In this document: piece after piece, positions 17,160 to 28,815 of the stretch | Layout: each line of letters opens with the position of its first letter | Position numbering within the stretch: position 1 is the stretch's first letter | Sequence record: NZ_CP028351.1 | Source of the DNA: a plasmid | DNA: 64,000 nucleotides | Reading direction: 5' to 3' (one strand) | Program-made: the position numbers and the translations under genes | Notes under the pieces: generated by a model | Seen by the model: the letters and a program-made list of their open reading frames with translations, nothing else | What the model was told of the DNA's origin: nothing | Database searches by the model: none

Positions 17160-17477
17160 ATGAGAGAGTTAACATCTGTTGAAATGCAGAACGTTTCAGG
17201 CGCAGGTTTTTTTGATTTCATCGGTTCAGTCGTTGTAGGTGCAGCTGCAGGTATTACTGCTTTCGGTCTTAAATGGGCCATGAGCGGCGGTAGCGCGGGC
17301 GGCGTCCTGGGCGTTGGTATTATCTCTGGCGGTGTTGGTCTGATCGTGGGTGCCGTTGTGGGGCTGGTCGATGGCGCACTTTATGGCGCGATGAATGGCT
17401 GGGAAACAACTGCAGGCTGGTTCAATAATATTGTTGAAAACCAGCTTGACCTGGGAACAGGTGTAATTACTGCATAA
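17160..17477 (+). CDS. Class II microcin-like bacteriocin precursor with a double-glycine (GA) leader
   Basis: The leader MRELTSVEMQNVSGA|G resembles the MccL leader MREITLNEMNNVSGA and the MccV leader MRTLTLNELDSVSGG. The predicted mature peptide is about 90 aa, Gly-rich, hydrophobic and Cys-free (FFDFIGSVVVGAAAGITAFGLKWAMSGGSAGGVLGVGIISGG...). A GGAGA SD is present. The C39 ABC exporter is encoded 9 kb downstream. Confidence 0.65.
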   Translation: MRELTSVEMQNVSGAGFFDFIGSVVVGAAAGITAFGLKWAMSGGSAGGVLGVGIISGGVGLIVGAVVGLVDGALYGAMNGWETTAGWFNNIVENQLDLGTGVITA

Positions 17478-17486
17478 GGAAAAATC

Positions 17487-17708
17487 ATGCGTGAATTGAA
17501 AACAAATGAAATTGACGGCGTTAGTGGCGGCTCATTAACTTCCGTCATTTTAGATTTCTTTAAACAGATTGGCGGAAGCTCCAAAGAAAAAACTGAGTGG
17601 GTACGTCCGGAATCAATACCAGAAGCTAACCCGGTTAGCGGTACTGCTTTTGGTATGGGTATTGTCGGTGTTGCTGCGGCCGTAGTTTTCGGCCTGCTGA
17701 TGTTCTGA
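17487..17708 (+). CDS. Second double-glycine-leader peptide precursor; it may be a second microcin component or a partner peptide
   Basis: Leader MRELKTNEIDGVSGG|S. The 58-aa mature part has a hydrophobic C-terminal helix (GMGIVGVAAAVVFGLLMF). An AAGGA SD is present. It starts 10 bp after the first precursor. Confidence 0.55.
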   Translation: MRELKTNEIDGVSGGSLTSVILDFFKQIGGSSKEKTEWVRPESIPEANPVSGTAFGMGIVGVAAAVVFGLLMF

Positions 17709-17812
17709 TTTACCAGGAAGGCGACAGACTTCCGGGAAGGAATGAGCGCTTGTCATAAAAATCAATCGCTCATAATTAAATGTTGTTCACTATTTTATAC
17801 AAAGGAAAGTAT

Positions 17813-26190: not shown

Positions 26191-26207
26191 TTTATAAGGT
26201 CTGTTCT

Positions 26208-28391
26208 GTGTTGTTATTAGAGAAACTCAATTTCAAATGGTTTAACCGCTTACCGATGATTCGTCAGTCACAGGCAGCGGAGTGTGGTCTGGCTTGTCTT
26301 GGCATGATAGCTAATTATCACGGCCATCAGATCGACATGATCACGTTACGTCGTCAGTTCGCTACATCGCTCAAAGGCGCCACACTGGCTGATGTCATCG
26401 CTATGGCACAACAGCTCAATATGACTTCCCGCGCACTGCGAGTGGAAATGGAAGAGCTGTCTAAACTGCGCATGCCCTGCATTCTTCACTGGGAACTGAA
26501 CCACTTTGTGGTATTGAAGAAAGTACGCGGCAATAAAATCACCATTCACGATCCCGCGCGTGGGATCCGCGAACTGACCTTTAAAGAAGCATCGACCGCC
26601 TTTACCGGTGTCGCGCTGGAGCTGGTTCCCTCTTCCACCTTTGAAGTAAAAGAAGAGAAAGAAAGCATCTCAATGATGAAGCTGGTGGGCAGCGTGACCG
26701 GGGTAAAGTCTGCCTTTGCTCAGGTGCTCATCCTCTCAATCGCACTGGAGCTATTCGGCGTCCTCGGCCCCTTCTTTATGCAATGGGTGATGGATATGGT
26801 GCTGGTTTCTGCTGACTATTCTTTACTGTCGCTGCTCGGTGTGGGCTTTATCATGATCGCGCTGTTTCAGACTATCGTTACAGCGTTGCGCTCATGGGTA
26901 ATGAGCTGGTTCTCAAGCCAGCTTAGTGTGCAGTGGACCATAAACGTCTGTCACCATATGTTAAAGCTGCCGCTGGAATGGTTCGAATCACGCCACGTCG
27001 GAGACATTCTTTCTCGTTACGGTTCGCTTAATACGATTCAGAGTACACTGACTTCCCGTTTCATCAGCACCGTACTGGACGGTGTCATGTCAATCGTTAC
27101 GGTAGTGATGCTTTTCATCTATAACGCGCAACTGGCGTGGCTGGTCATTGGACTTTTTCTCGCCTATGCACTGCTGCGTTTTATGGCCTACGATCCGGTT
27201 CGCCGCGCCAATGAAGAACAAATCATCAGCTCGGCCCGTACCCAATCGTCTCTGCTTGAAACGCTGCGTGGGATCCAGGCGGTTAAAACCAATAATAAAC
27301 AGGTACCCCGACTCTCGGCTTACATGAACTTTCTGGTGGATACCACCAATAAAGGCATCGTGATTCAGAAGCTCAACATCCTGTTCGGTTCGGCTCAGGG
27401 ACTGCTAACCTCAGTGGGCCGTGTGGTTCTGGTCTGGCTTGCTGCCCTGCAAGTTTTGGATGGCAACTTCTCTGCCGGTATGCTGACCGCCTTTATCAGC
27501 TTTTCAGATCAATTCATGAGTCGCGGTTCAGGTTTGATCAATGCCATCATCGATTTCCGTATGCTGAGAATGCATGGTGAACGCCTTGCCGATATTGTTC
27601 TGTCTGAAACAGAAGTCAGTTCTGAGGGCAATCCAGGTCTGGTTAGTAAGGAAACCGACAAGGAGACAGACGTACCGCAGGATATCAAGCTTATCAATCT
27701 CCGTTTTCGTTATGCGCCGACTGAACCCTGGGTTGTCGATGGTGCAAATCTGGAGATTAAAGCGGGTGAAAGCCTTGCCATCGTGGGGCCATCCGGCCAG
27801 GGTAAAACTACGATGGCCAAACTTATTCTTGGCCTGCTACACCCGGAAGAAGGCACCATCACCGTGGGTGGCATGGACATCACTCAGACCGGACTTGAAC
27901 ATCACCGTAATCGCATCGGCTGCGTAATGCAGGATGACATTCTCTTTTCAGGCTCAATCAGCGAGAACATCAGCTTCTTTGATAACGAACCCGATCACGC
28001 AAAAATTACCCGCGTGGCCCGTCTGGCTCAGATTCATGGCGATATCATGAAAATGCCGATGAATTATCAAAGCCTTGTAGGTGATATGGGCTCGTTTTTA
28101 TCAGGTGGCCAGCTACAACGTATCCTGCTGGCGCGCGCACTCTATCGCGAACCTAAAATCCTGGTACTGGATGAGGCCACCAGTCATCTGGATATCTATA
28201 ACGAAGCCCAGATCAACAACGCAATTAAGCAGATGATGATCACCAGAATCATCATTGCACACCGTCCGGAAACTATCCGCAGTGCCGATAAAATCGTCCT
28301 GTTAAATAACGGTAAGCTCAGCGAAGTCACGGCAGAGCAGTTATTTGGCCAGACAACAACCCATAATAAAACGGAGATTACCCATGGATAA
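26208..28391 (+). CDS. cvaB-like: Bacteriocin/microcin-processing ABC exporter with an N-terminal C39 peptidase domain (CvaB/MchF family)
   Basis: LLLEKLNFKWFNRLPMIRQSQAAECGLACLGMIANYHGHQIDMITLRRQF...ILHWELNHFVVL...IHDPARGIRELTFKE is near-colinear with CvaB (INLLDLRWQRRVPVIHQTETAECGLACLAMICGHFGK...ILHWDFSHFVVL...LHDPARGIRYISREE). Walker A GPSGQGKTT and the signature LSGGQLQR are present. A GTG start at 26208 with an AAGG SD avoids overlap with the cvaA-like stop. Confidence 0.9.
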   Translation: MLLLEKLNFKWFNRLPMIRQSQAAECGLACLGMIANYHGHQIDMITLRRQFATSLKGATLADVIAMAQQLNMTSRALRVEMEELSKLRMPCILHWELNHFVVLKKVRGNKITIHDPARGIRELTFKEASTAFTGVALELVPSSTFEVKEEKESISMMKLVGSVTGVKSAFAQVLILSIALELFGVLGPFFMQWVMDMVLVSADYSLLSLLGVGFIMIALFQTIVTALRSWVMSWFSSQLSVQWTINVCHHMLKLPLEWFESRHVGDILSRYGSLNTIQSTLTSRFISTVLDGVMSIVTVVMLFIYNAQLAWLVIGLFLAYALLRFMAYDPVRRANEEQIISSARTQSSLLETLRGIQAVKTNNKQVPRLSAYMNFLVDTTNKGIVIQKLNILFGSAQGLLTSVGRVVLVWLAALQVLDGNFSAGMLTAFISFSDQFMSRGSGLINAIIDFRMLRMHGERLADIVLSETEVSSEGNPGLVSKETDKETDVPQDIKLINLRFRYAPTEPWVVDGANLEIKAGESLAIVGPSGQGKTTMAKLILGLLHPEEGTITVGGMDITQTGLEHHRNRIGCVMQDDILFSGSISENISFFDNEPDHAKITRVARLAQIHGDIMKMPMNYQSLVGDMGSFLSGGQLQRILLARALYREPKILVLDEATSHLDIYNEAQINNAIKQMMITRIIIAHRPETIRSADKIVLLNNGKLSEVTAEQLFGQTTTHNKTEITHG

Positions 28392-28815
28392 GACTATTTG
28401 CCGCTTCACTGAAGGCACAATTACCTTGCCGGAAGGCTACTGCGAACGAACACTGAATACGCTGGCTGATACCCGATCTGTTCTGCCACCAATCACTATT
28501 TCCCGTGATAAGTTAGGCGACCATAACAACCCGGAAGAGTATATCCTTAGCCAGCTCGCTATCCTGCAAAAGCAGATGAAAGACTGGCAACAGGAAGCCC
28601 ATCAGCCAGTAGTTTTGGGGGACAACCTGACTACGGGAATCATGATCAGTTATGATTTCCTGCGACCAGATAATCTTCGTCTTTATCAGAAACAAGCTTT
28701 ATTCACGCTTAATATGGAAGACATATTGATTTTCTCTCTGTCGAAGGCGAGTCCTATTACCGCAGCAGATCTTCAGTTGTTCTCAGATACGCTAAAGAGT
28801 TTCCGTACCTGGTAA
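28384..28815 (+). CDS. DUF1795 (EagR/DcrB-like) protein translationally coupled to the ABC exporter
   Basis: The ATG at 28384 overlaps the exporter's TAA stop. MDKTICRFTEGTITLPEGYCERTLNTL...PITISRDKLGDHNNPEEYILSQLAILQKQMKDW...ILIFSLS...LKSFR follows the DUF1795 pattern (F.EG.F.VP..WQDRSM.VL...LVISRDEL...FD.YV.SQL..L...). Confidence 0.45.
   Translation: MDKTICRFTEGTITLPEGYCERTLNTLADTRSVLPPITISRDKLGDHNNPEEYILSQLAILQKQMKDWQQEAHQPVVLGDNLTTGIMISYDFLRPDNLRLYQKQALFTLNMEDILIFSLSKASPITAADLQLFSDTLKSFRTW

Follow-up and report, generated by a model that had tools for sequence, protein, structure and literature searches.

The subject of this analysis is a window of 64,000 nucleotides of plasmid DNA (sequence record NZ_CP028351.1), and in particular a gene cluster within it which encodes two small peptides with double-glycine-type (GG) leaders, here called pepA and pepB, together with a chaperone-usher fimbria, an exporter of the type I secretion class and a protein of the DUF1795/Eag family. 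An earlier note on this DNA had read the cluster as an undescribed two-peptide microcin module, separated from its exporter by a fimbrial operon. All of the genes which that note claimed are present where it placed them, and its pairing of two GG-leader peptides with a cognate C39-ABC/HlyD/TolC exporter in the same block is borne out by the domains and catalytic motifs seen. The region is very probably a single conserved cluster of about 15 kb, which in its anatomy couples peptide-exporting type I secretion to a chaperone-usher fimbria, and the junction between the peptide genes and the fimbrial gene fimA is the most constant feature of the family.

The larger peptide gene, pepA (17160–17477, plus strand), encodes a pre-peptide of 105 residues whose leader, MRELTSVEMQNVSGA, is of the double-glycine type and ends in VSGA before the first G of the mature start GFFDF, with cleavage predicted after G14-A15. 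The mature peptide comprises 90 residues (8.7 kDa, isoelectric point 4.05), with 22 glycines (24%), no cysteine and a grand average of hydropathy (GRAVY) of 0.97. GxxxG motifs start at residues 27, 43, 44, 47, 53, 60, 64, 68, 72 and 76; G60-G64-G68-G72-G76 form a glycine zipper, and the core of the GxxxG region (residues 47–68) runs without interruption, D71 falling in the last repeats. Residues 77–105, AMNGWETTAGWFNNIVENQLDLGTGVITA, make up a polar and charged C-terminal region. Among pepA homologues the C-terminal tail is variable and the leader is conserved. An AlphaFold2 (AF2) model consists of two long helices, 15–49 and 53–93, at a mean predicted local distance difference test (pLDDT) of 73. 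The ratio of nonsynonymous to synonymous substitution rates (dN/dS) is 0.08–0.24, indicating purifying selection. Homologues fall into about 66 clusters at 90% identity, and a pepA profile run against 1.8 billion representative proteins retrieved 61 clusters at E ≤ 1e-3; the named sources of pepA and pepB homologues are nearly all Pantoea, with Erwinia, Rahnella and Gibbsiella in addition.

The smaller gene, pepB (17487–17708, plus strand), encodes a pre-peptide of 73 residues with the GG leader MRELKTNEIDGVSGG, which ends in VSGG before the S of the mature start SLTS (predicted cleavage at G14-G15). Its mature part of 58 residues (6.1 kDa) consists of a SLTSxILDFF motif, a polar linker and a single transmembrane-like helix at the C-terminus, the N-terminus being amphipathic. 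The leader pattern MRELxxxExxxVSGG with its following S is invariant in 17 of 17 sequences, as are S16, T18 and S19, the first residues of the mature peptide; since the processing site is invariant, pepB is taken to be genuinely a C39 substrate, as opposed to a resident immunity protein. As with pepA, selection is purifying (dN/dS 0.06–0.17), and homologues form about 44 clusters at 90% identity. A scan for the leader pattern in six frames of the whole 64-kb window found pepA and pepB to be the only matching open reading frames (ORFs), and Shine-Dalgarno sequences precede both. It is strongly supported that both peptide genes are genuine and that their double-glycine leaders are conserved; RefSeq labels both products as hypothetical proteins. 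The leaders resemble those of microcins L and V (MccL, MccV) and are not almost identical to them, as had been supposed: the BLAST match of pepA to MccL, reported by the microcin finder cinful in the supplement of Morton et al. (2026, PMC13174018), is 47.5% identical over the first 40 residues only.

With regard to known families, Pfam and NCBIfam gave pepA no match over threshold and none at E ≤ 0.01, and its matches to MccV and Bacteriocin_IIc lie at E of about 1, covering mainly the leader and N-terminal part (residues 1–48 and 2–52). The mature regions of both peptides show no homology to MccV, MccL, MccN or MccH47, and neither peptide has a Pfam or NCBIfam match over threshold. Profile comparison with hhalign aligned pepA to a Xylella fastidiosa 'colicin V-like' CvaC peptide over 95 columns (probability 97.8%, E=8.5e-13) and to CdzD over 65 columns (probability 81%, E=1.2e-5); a pepA relative, P0210, clears the gathering score of Pfam DUF5862, for which pepA itself is below threshold (E=1.4). 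Cdz-like proteins were recognised by Garcia-Bayona et al. (2017, PMC5380434) by four sequence features, which include a length of 60–151 residues, a leader ending in G[G/A/S], a glycine zipper and a short polar or charged C-terminus. All four are found in pepA; pepB has the length and the GG ending, with a short small-residue motif only in place of a zipper. Membership of pepA in a family of glycine-zipper, Cdz-like, Xylella 'CvaC-like' and DUF5862-related peptides is thus strongly supported at the level of sequence comparison.

The exact pepA sequence is already on record, as UniProt E1PKJ0 (Pvag_pPag10087) of plasmid pPag1 of Pantoea vagans C9-1. E1PKJ0 figures among the 239 glycine-zipper proteins classed as 'Cdz-like' by Garcia-Bayona, Guo and Laub (2017, PMC5380434; Supplementary file 1), and the same sequence is the microcin candidate MccP06, which Morton et al. 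(2026, PMC13174018) found with cinful at CP028351.1 81160–81477 and which the microcin hidden Markov model (HMM) of cinful classes as a microcin. These coordinates are larger than those of pepA in the window by exactly 64,000, so that the window probably corresponds to bases 64001–128000 of this Pantoea plasmid record. For pepA, the description as an undescribed microcin therefore fails; pepB is missing from both data sets. MccP06 was assayed by placing its mature part on the MccV leader, secreting it through CvaAB in E. coli W3110 and scoring self-inhibition (PMC13174018). The 12-h optical density (OD) ratio was 0.895 in one trial, a significant drop of 10.5%, and 0.979 in the other, which was not significant, and the tested pepA relatives MccP05, MccE18 and MccE19 are absent from the 12 candidates named as active (PMC13174018).

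The exporter is encoded on the plus strand by three successive genes: a TolC-family outer-membrane channel (23583–24905; TIGR01844, 230 bits against a cut-off of 225), an HlyD-type membrane-fusion protein of the type I secretion system (24931–26190; Pfam HlyD_3, TIGR01843) and a peptidase-containing ABC transporter (PCAT; 26208–28391; Pfam Peptidase_C39, ABC_membrane and ABC_tran). The Peptidase_C39 domain of the PCAT scores 124 bits, and its catalytic motifs are all present, with the Cys in AAECGLAC, the His in NHFVVL and the Asp in IHDPA. For the ABC gene, GTG 26208 is the most likely start, following RefSeq, in place of the 26142 previously assumed. In transporters of the PCAT kind, leader recognition and cleavage are the task of the C39 domain, and the peptide is exported through the conduit formed by ABC transporter, adaptor and TolC. 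A scan of genome contigs with the TolC protein of the window yielded only 10 loci, all close ones from Pantoea or Erwinia.

Directly ahead of the exporter lies an orphan response regulator (22884–23546, plus strand), in which Pfam and NCBIfam find a receiver (REC) domain and a GerE/LuxR helix-turn-helix (HTH). It had been described as FimZ-like; RcsB is the best NCBIfam match, FimZ scores lower and every match is below cut-off. The gene is intact here (220 residues). Its counterpart in P. vagans C9-1 (locus L006, 12057–12718) is annotated as two ORFs of 78 and 118 residues, consistent with a frameshift. The response regulator also adjoins the exporter in the diverged loci L025, L028 and L031.

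Between the peptide genes and the response regulator stands a chaperone-usher fimbria set complete in one operon, all on the plus strand. It comprises a FimA-like major subunit (17813–18343, start following RefSeq for pPag1; Pfam Fimbrial, FimA), a PapD-type periplasmic chaperone (18405–19142; Pfam PapD_N and PapD_C, best NCBIfam match PRK09926 below cut-off), an outer-membrane usher (19169–21754; best NCBIfam match PRK09828 with 586 bits, below cut-off), whose homologues bear PapC_N, Usher and PapC_C, and a two-domain fimbrial subunit of 353 residues (21767–22828), presumed to be the tip adhesin. In this last protein the Pfam Fimbrial domain is confined to residues 205–353, and the protein evolves fast, with 57–95% identity across loci.

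A block of 15.5 kb is 98.1% identical to plasmid pPag1 (NC_014561.1) of P. vagans C9-1 and is found in 46 Pantoea plasmids of PLSDB. The order of genes in this pPag1 type is LuxR (minus strand), HTH46 (minus strand), an AT-rich spacer of about 1 kb, pepA, pepB, fimA, PapD, usher, adhesin, response regulator, TolC, HlyD, PCAT, DUF1795, FidL (minus strand) and a winged-helix regulator (minus strand), and tblastn synteny and gene calls show it to be kept in P. agglomerans, several other Pantoea species, an Erwinia sp. and Rahnella variigena (Yersiniaceae). Beyond these, the neighbourhoods of seven of the 61 pepA-profile clusters were inspected. Four of them, L025 (Erwinia), L027 (metagenome), L028 and L031, have a second order, TolC-HlyD-PCAT-pepA-pepB-fimA-PapD-usher-adhesin, with or without a response regulator in front; in L026 three leader peptides are followed by the fimbrial operon; the contig of L029 is too short to judge; and L030, a more distant member of the pepA family, is an orphan with neither fimbria nor exporter nearby. 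The second small ORF in L025, L026, L027 and L028 has the pepB architecture (leader, xSDIL(D/N)FF-like motif, polar or proline-rich linker, C-terminal helix), and in L031 an ORF of 79 residues occupies the pepB position, its N-terminal 41 residues matching pepB.

Peptide genes thus lie directly 5' of fimA in 6 of the 6 lineages with enough sequence, in two gene orders. Identity of the permuted clusters to the window is 60–66% for the ABC transporter, 52–58% for HlyD, 43–47% for the usher and 45–47% for pepA. Because all components are homologous at similar divergence, the whole unit is considered to be of common ancestry, in two circular permutations. The separation of the module from its exporter by the fimbrial operon, which the earlier note had pointed out, is not an accident of position, in view of a junction conserved in six lineages. 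A recent insertion of the operon was considered and rejected, because synteny is seen in Rahnella as well as in the permuted clusters. Evolution is faster in the peptides and the adhesin than in the exporter.

Several observations concern the way in which the cluster varies and decays. In Pantoea sp. GD03673 (L014; 7700–9400 and 14800–15200), the regulators and the response regulator-TolC-HlyD-PCAT part are kept, and the peptides, fimbrial operon and Eag gene are lost; in a metagenomic contig (L022, 8300–10435), the regulators and the DUF1795/Eag gene are the sole remnants; and in two P. agglomerans plasmids (NZ_CP143411.1, about 33500–34500) pepA abuts a DUF1795/Eag remnant. Divergence between the window (14858–30218) and Pantoea sp. 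R13S299 (L007) is mosaic, with synonymous values of 0.13–0.19 for the response regulator, TolC, HlyD and ABC genes and 0.24–0.77 for LuxR, HTH46, pepA, pepB, the fimbrial genes, FidL and the winged-helix regulator, which suggests that the exporter half and the peptide-fimbria half have been exchanged separately by recombination. Additional leader peptides also occur. Two further glycine-zipper GG-leader peptides of 108 residues, with a weak DUF5862 match, follow the adhesin gene in L027 (10364–11118), so that this locus has five leader peptides around one fimbrial operon. A third GG-leader type of about 67–71 residues, with the motif ...NPLNG..xG.xIGS.F..., lies between the pepA-like and pepB-like genes of L026 (10357–10560) and L027 (4563–4778) and is not found in the window.

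At the end of the exporter, a gene of 143 codons (28384–28815, plus strand), which the earlier note covered by its coordinates alone, encodes a homologue of the DUF1795/Eag-type chaperones (Pfam DcrB, E=1e-19; 71 bits against a cut-off of 27). Its most likely start, ATG 28384, overlaps the ABC stop codon by 8 nucleotides. The protein has no signal peptide, and its best solved relative is Salmonella SciW (phmmer against PDB sequences, E=2e-7). An AF2 model (pLDDT 88.9, predicted template modelling score, pTM, 0.84) has as its top Foldseek match SciW bound to the transmembrane domain (TMD) of Rhs1 (E=7e-9, template modelling score 0.75), EagT6 also being matched, and the knob residue L66 of SciW aligns with M65 here, a position occupied by a hydrophobic residue (M, V or Y) in 14 of 15 aligned homologues. 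The modelling thus strongly supports an Eag chaperone fold for the product of the gene that overlaps the ABC stop. In a word-indexed search, full-length homologues at least 59–60% identical were found in this cluster type only, and the next-closest plasmid homologue (41.6%, Cronobacter) directly precedes an RHS effector gene. Here the neighbours are the PCAT gene and the FidL-like gene in place of an adjacent prePAAR, PAAR or Rhs effector, and the flanking pPag1 annotation holds no Rhs, PAAR or type VI secretion system (T6SS) gene. A stray T6SS gene was considered and rejected on these grounds and on the overlap with the ABC stop. Eag chaperones grip the transmembrane helices of effectors by their GxxxG/A motifs, in knob-into-hole contacts (Ahmad et al. 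2020, PMC7773334); by analogy, the candidate clients here are the helices of pepA, rich in GxxxG, and the helix at the C-terminus of pepB. Since the other permutation lacks the Eag gene, this gene is an accessory, lineage-specific addition of the pPag1 type and not part of the core.

From pepA through the DUF1795 gene all genes read in the same direction, and neighbours are separated by -8 to 104 nucleotides. The longest gap is the pepB-fimA spacer of 104 nucleotides, in which folding predicts two hairpins (17716–17733 and 17742–17772). An RNAalifold consensus of 7 diverged loci holds 17 pairs, 8 of which show compensatory (double) changes, and includes a third stem at the start of fimA. The spacer hairpins have no canonical U-tract, and their conservation suggests that they may act as a transcript stabiliser or as an attenuator tuning the ratio of peptide to fimbria expression. 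No terminator-like site was found between genes of the cluster, and intrinsic terminators in these positions were rejected as all sites reported by the scan sit within coding regions. Upstream of pepA lies an AT-rich non-coding region of about 1 kb (16124–17159, about 33% GC), presumed to be the promoter and regulatory region. Its conserved blocks include AATTATGGAT.TTTTACTATTT and, about 80–105 nucleotides upstream of the pepA start, AATAGCGCCGTTCGCTTGAAGCGGCA. This region contains no conserved ORF and no Rfam match, and a structured RNA or riboswitch was accordingly rejected as an explanation of it.

The conserved block extends beyond the plus-strand genes on both sides. Divergent from the peptide operon are a LuxR/GerE-type regulator without receiver-domain match (14858–15508, minus strand; weak NCBIfam matches, BglJ and FimW-like), syntenic in all pPag1-type loci at 47–93% identity, and a winged-helix, HTH_46-like regulator of 196 residues (15533–16123, minus strand; Pfam HTH_46 E=9e-5, below the gathering score), which is the most conserved gene of the block (81–99% identity, dN/dS about 0.01). 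At the other end, a FidL-like membrane protein (28891–29388, minus strand; Pfam FidL_like E=2e-11), syntenic in pPag1-type loci, is paired with a ToxR/MarT-like winged-helix regulator (29385–30218, minus strand), labelled 'winged helix-turn-helix domain-containing protein' in RefSeq and likewise syntenic; homologues of the latter bear Trans_reg_C, and its gene is the end of the conserved block. Sub-threshold Rfam matches (Thr and Leu leaders, STnc430, VqmR; E 0.2–0.6) at 14706–14877, between a YgiW-like gene and the LuxR gene, most likely reflect a hairpin that acts as a terminator in both directions, rather than an RNA gene.

Further out, the pPag1 annotation served to place the autotransporter, Hha and flagellin regions. 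Immediately upstream of the cluster come two autotransporter genes (about 5950–10600 and about 11480–14380), together with DUF333 and YgiW-like genes; one is Peptidase_S6/SPATE-like in P. agglomerans, and the other is of the pertactin type. The Peptidase_S6/SPATE-like region of the window matches C9-1 partly, with 89–95% identity and an unaligned stretch. Since these genes flank it upstream, the cluster is considered to lie within an adhesin-rich, low-GC island (about 9–31 kb). In Rahnella variigena (L004, 1–7221) a giant Big_6/Big_13 repeat adhesin of more than 4,100 residues takes the place of the autotransporters, so that the neighbouring adhesins vary by host and the cluster stays constant. 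A gene for a Hha/YmoA-family nucleoid-associated regulator at about 5560–5760, 9 kb upstream by pPag1 homology, may have a part in silencing the AT-rich island. An orphan flagellin gene at about 52580–54030 lies beside a budA-alsS-acetoin reductase operon (about 49100–52370), again by pPag1 homology.

A toxin that kills kin is expected to be accompanied by immunity of the CdzI or microcin type. The statement that no recognisable immunity gene is present held up, in that the regions upstream of the peptide genes and antisense to them hold no conserved small ORF. A hidden immunity ORF was sought among six-frame ORFs of at least 25 residues, from the HTH46 gene to fimA, in 8 diverged loci, and was rejected, only pepA and pepB being conserved; the antisense ORFs 17069–17281, 17381–17584 and 17613–17765 are not conserved in the 8 loci. 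Siderophore-modification genes were likewise found to be absent, as had been noted. The locus therefore shows some of the traits of class II microcins, namely GG-type leaders, a C39-ABC transporter and membrane-fusion protein (MFP) in the locus and a mature size below 10 kDa, and lacks others, namely an adjacent small immunity protein and mature-domain homology to a characterised microcin. Immunity genes are reported to be hard to find in Cdz-like loci (PMC5380434).

By analogy with Cdz, the cluster may serve contact-dependent antagonism, in which a surface-retained glycine-zipper peptide pair acts on neighbours and the fimbria supplies the contact; we regard this as plausible, with a confidence slightly short of even. 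CdzC and CdzD are exported by a type I secretion system, retained at the surface, both required and associated with surface fibrils, which the authors propose may mediate delivery (PMC5380434). Here, transcription from a promoter in the AT-rich region would yield pepA and pepB, and read-through past the two conserved hairpins would extend to the fimbrial and possibly the exporter genes. A cytoplasmic Eag-like dimer would hold the GxxxG-rich hydrophobic helices of the pre-peptides, preventing their insertion in the inner membrane of the producer. The C39 domain would then cut off the 15-residue leaders, and the peptides would leave via the HlyD/TolC-like conduit. Too hydrophobic to diffuse, the mature peptides would remain at or close to the surface of the cell and form a two-component membrane-active agent, like CdzC/CdzD, and the co-expressed fimbria would hold producer and target together, so that the peptides could act at contact. 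Contact-dependent antagonism is favoured because of the extreme hydrophobicity, the two co-conserved peptide types, the invariant link to an adhesin operon and the fast evolution of peptides and adhesin. The marginal effect of MccP06 alone in liquid E. coli culture and the absence of its relatives from the candidates named as active are consistent with a need for the partner or for contact. More tentatively, and with the chances rather against it, these clusters would represent a distinct, previously unrecognised contact-dependent weapon in Enterobacterales, in which the fimbria docks, the peptide pair is delivered from the surface, and an Eag chaperone has been recruited from the T6SS in the pPag1 lineage.

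Several points weigh against contact-dependent antagonism. The similarity of pepA to CdzD is modest, and the leader contributes part of the alignment. The sole assay, of pepA alone in E. coli, is near-negative (PMC13174018). An immunity gene, whether of the CdzI or microcin type, was not found on either strand of the HTH46-fimA interval in the 8 loci. L026 has no exporter within 10 kb despite its peptides and fimbrial operon, and the Eag gene is missing from five clusters of the other gene order. In addition, co-transcription of peptides and fimbria is deduced only from the spacing of the genes, and the fimbria could serve adhesion to hosts or plant surfaces, unrelated to the peptides.

The strongest rival is an adhesion or biofilm module, in which the glycine-zipper peptides would be mainly structural, forming amyloid-like surface aggregates together with the fimbria, with toxicity absent or secondary. 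Such a module would need no immunity gene, and none was found in the 8 loci. It would also account for the near-negative inhibition of E. coli by MccP06, and would suit peptides whose genes always lie beside an adhesin operon and seem to be transcribed with it, in an island rich in other adhesins (the autotransporters) and in adhesion-type regulators. Glycine zippers are typical of amyloid formers (PMC5380434), and the class II microcin MccAB1 of Acinetobacter baumannii makes amyloid fibres and drives biofilm formation independently of killing (PMC13188072). On the other hand, MccAB1 retains antibacterial activity and comes with an immunity gene (PMC13188072), two distinct co-conserved peptide types are closer to two-peptide bacteriocins than to matrix proteins, and a faster evolution of peptides and adhesin than of exporter is a pattern common in antagonism and recognition loci. 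We consider such a mainly structural role rather unlikely.

Somewhat less probable again is that one or both peptides are ordinary diffusible class IIa microcins, shed into the medium and entering targets through an outer-membrane receptor, with the fimbrial operon merely co-inherited. The canonical GG leaders, PCAT and MFP, the mature size below 10 kDa, the cinful HMM call for pepA, the variable C-terminal tail, reminiscent of microcin uptake domains, and the significant inhibition in one of two MccP06 trials all speak for it. However, mere neighbourhood does not explain a peptide-fimbria junction kept in 6 of 6 lineages and in two orders, and the GRAVY value of pepA and its long glycine zipper predict poor solubility. 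The mature domains are without homology to characterised microcins, no adjacent immunity gene was found, and 4 of the 4 family members tested are weak or inactive.

It is also improbable that pepB is a leader-bearing immunity, anchor or helper protein, whose C-terminal helix in the envelope of the producer neutralises or tethers pepA. Its gene does stand right after a structural gene, the usual site of immunity genes, its product is small with one transmembrane-like helix, a pepB-type partner always accompanies the pepA-type peptide, and the 8 loci offer no other immunity candidate. Nevertheless, a GG leader that is invariant in 17 homologues predicts cleavage and export through the TolC conduit and not retention in the inner membrane, and some clusters have three to five leader peptides. 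To our knowledge, a GG leader is not seen in the immunity proteins of microcins and class II bacteriocins.

An adhesin-plus-cytolysin pair against eukaryotic hosts (plants, insects or fungi), with the fimbria binding and the peptides damaging, would make bacterial immunity unnecessary, suits the plant- and insect-associated Pantoea, Erwinia and Rahnella that host the cluster and recalls the linkage of the type I-secreted toxin hly with pap fimbrial genes on islands of uropathogenic E. coli, yet it is highly improbable, given that the characterised relatives (Cdz, microcins) all act on bacteria and that P. vagans C9-1 is a harmless strain used in biocontrol.

If the coupling of peptides and fimbria is functional, the Cdz-like peptides predicted across many Gram-negative species, some of them pathogens, would gain a defined adhesion partner, and the question of how insoluble peptides reach their target would become directly testable. 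Single-peptide screens for microcins in liquid culture, like that in which MccP06 was assayed, may underrate such candidates, as partner peptide, chaperone and contact are absent. A type I exporter served by an Eag chaperone would, if true, provide the first Eag client outside the T6SS and widen the role of a family regarded as specific to that system. Eag paralogues outnumber prePAAR effectors in most genomes (PMC7773334), and the link to type I secretion might explain some of these 'surplus' paralogues. Close homologues of the cluster are carried on plasmids of P. vagans C9-1 and of P. agglomerans, which serve in the biocontrol of fire blight, and could aid competitiveness on plant surfaces.

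With respect to novelty, no description of this peptide-fimbria arrangement was found in the literature on DUF5862 or on chaperone-usher fimbriae in combination with C39 and bacteriocins, and a 2025 survey of microcins mentions neither fimbriae nor Cdz. Cdz-like loci are often near 'fimbrial adhesins', which the authors take as a sign of horizontal transfer (PMC5380434); the fimbrial operon of this locus, its in-cluster TolC and its DUF1795 gene are discussed neither there nor in PMC13174018. The pepB family of partner peptides, the fusion of peptides with a chaperone-usher operon in two gene orders with in-cluster TolC, and the attachment of an Eag chaperone to a type I exporter appear to be undescribed.

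Among known systems, the Cdz system of Caulobacter crescentus (exporter CdzAB, peptides CdzC/CdzD, immunity protein CdzI; PMC5380434) offers a parallel in organisation, with two adjacent small proteins whose leaders end in G[GAS], GxxxG zippers of small hydrophobic residues with a short polar C-terminus (here in pepA) and a dedicated ABC/adaptor pair. In contrast to Cdz, the present cluster has its own TolC, a chaperone-usher operon behind the peptides, a number of regulators and, in the pPag1 lineage, an Eag chaperone; a CdzI-like immunity gene was not found in it, pepB is a different type of peptide and not a second glycine-zipper protein, and the sequence similarity of pepA to CdzD is weak, as the hhalign probability of 81% indicates. 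For mature pepA, the clearest sequence relationship is to the Xylella fastidiosa 'colicin V-like' CvaC peptides and DUF5862. Class IIa microcins (MccV with CvaABC-Cvi, and MccL) share a similar 15-residue leader, export by PCAT, MFP and TolC, plasmid location and an unmodified mature peptide below 10 kDa. Here, by contrast, the mature domains are unrelated to theirs in sequence, cysteine and disulfide are lacking, pepA is far more hydrophobic, tolC is in the cluster, a fimbrial operon is embedded and no immunity gene is adjacent. Class IIb bacteriocins of Gram-positive bacteria (lactococcin G, plantaricin EF/JK) likewise have two side-by-side GG-leader peptides, GxxxG motifs and a C39-ABC transporter, but differ in host, since a Gram-negative host requires a TolC conduit, in size (about 25–40 residues against 90 and 58), in the immunity gene, which does not follow the peptides here, and in the lack of any sequence homology. 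With the Eag chaperones SciW, EagT6 and EagR1 (PMC7773334), the DUF1795 protein shares fold and family, a cytoplasmic location and putative clients with GxxxG-rich hydrophobic helices, whereas, unlike T6SS Eag genes, its gene overlaps the stop codon of a type I ABC transporter and its putative clients are small leader peptides. Finally, MccAB1 (Mcc17978) of A. baumannii (Telford et al. 2026, PMC13188072) is also a PCAT-exported class II peptide and, being linked to surface fibres and biofilm, sets a precedent for a non-killing role; it differs from the present cluster in its hidden immunity gene with two transmembrane segments, its cupin partners and its lack of a fimbrial operon.

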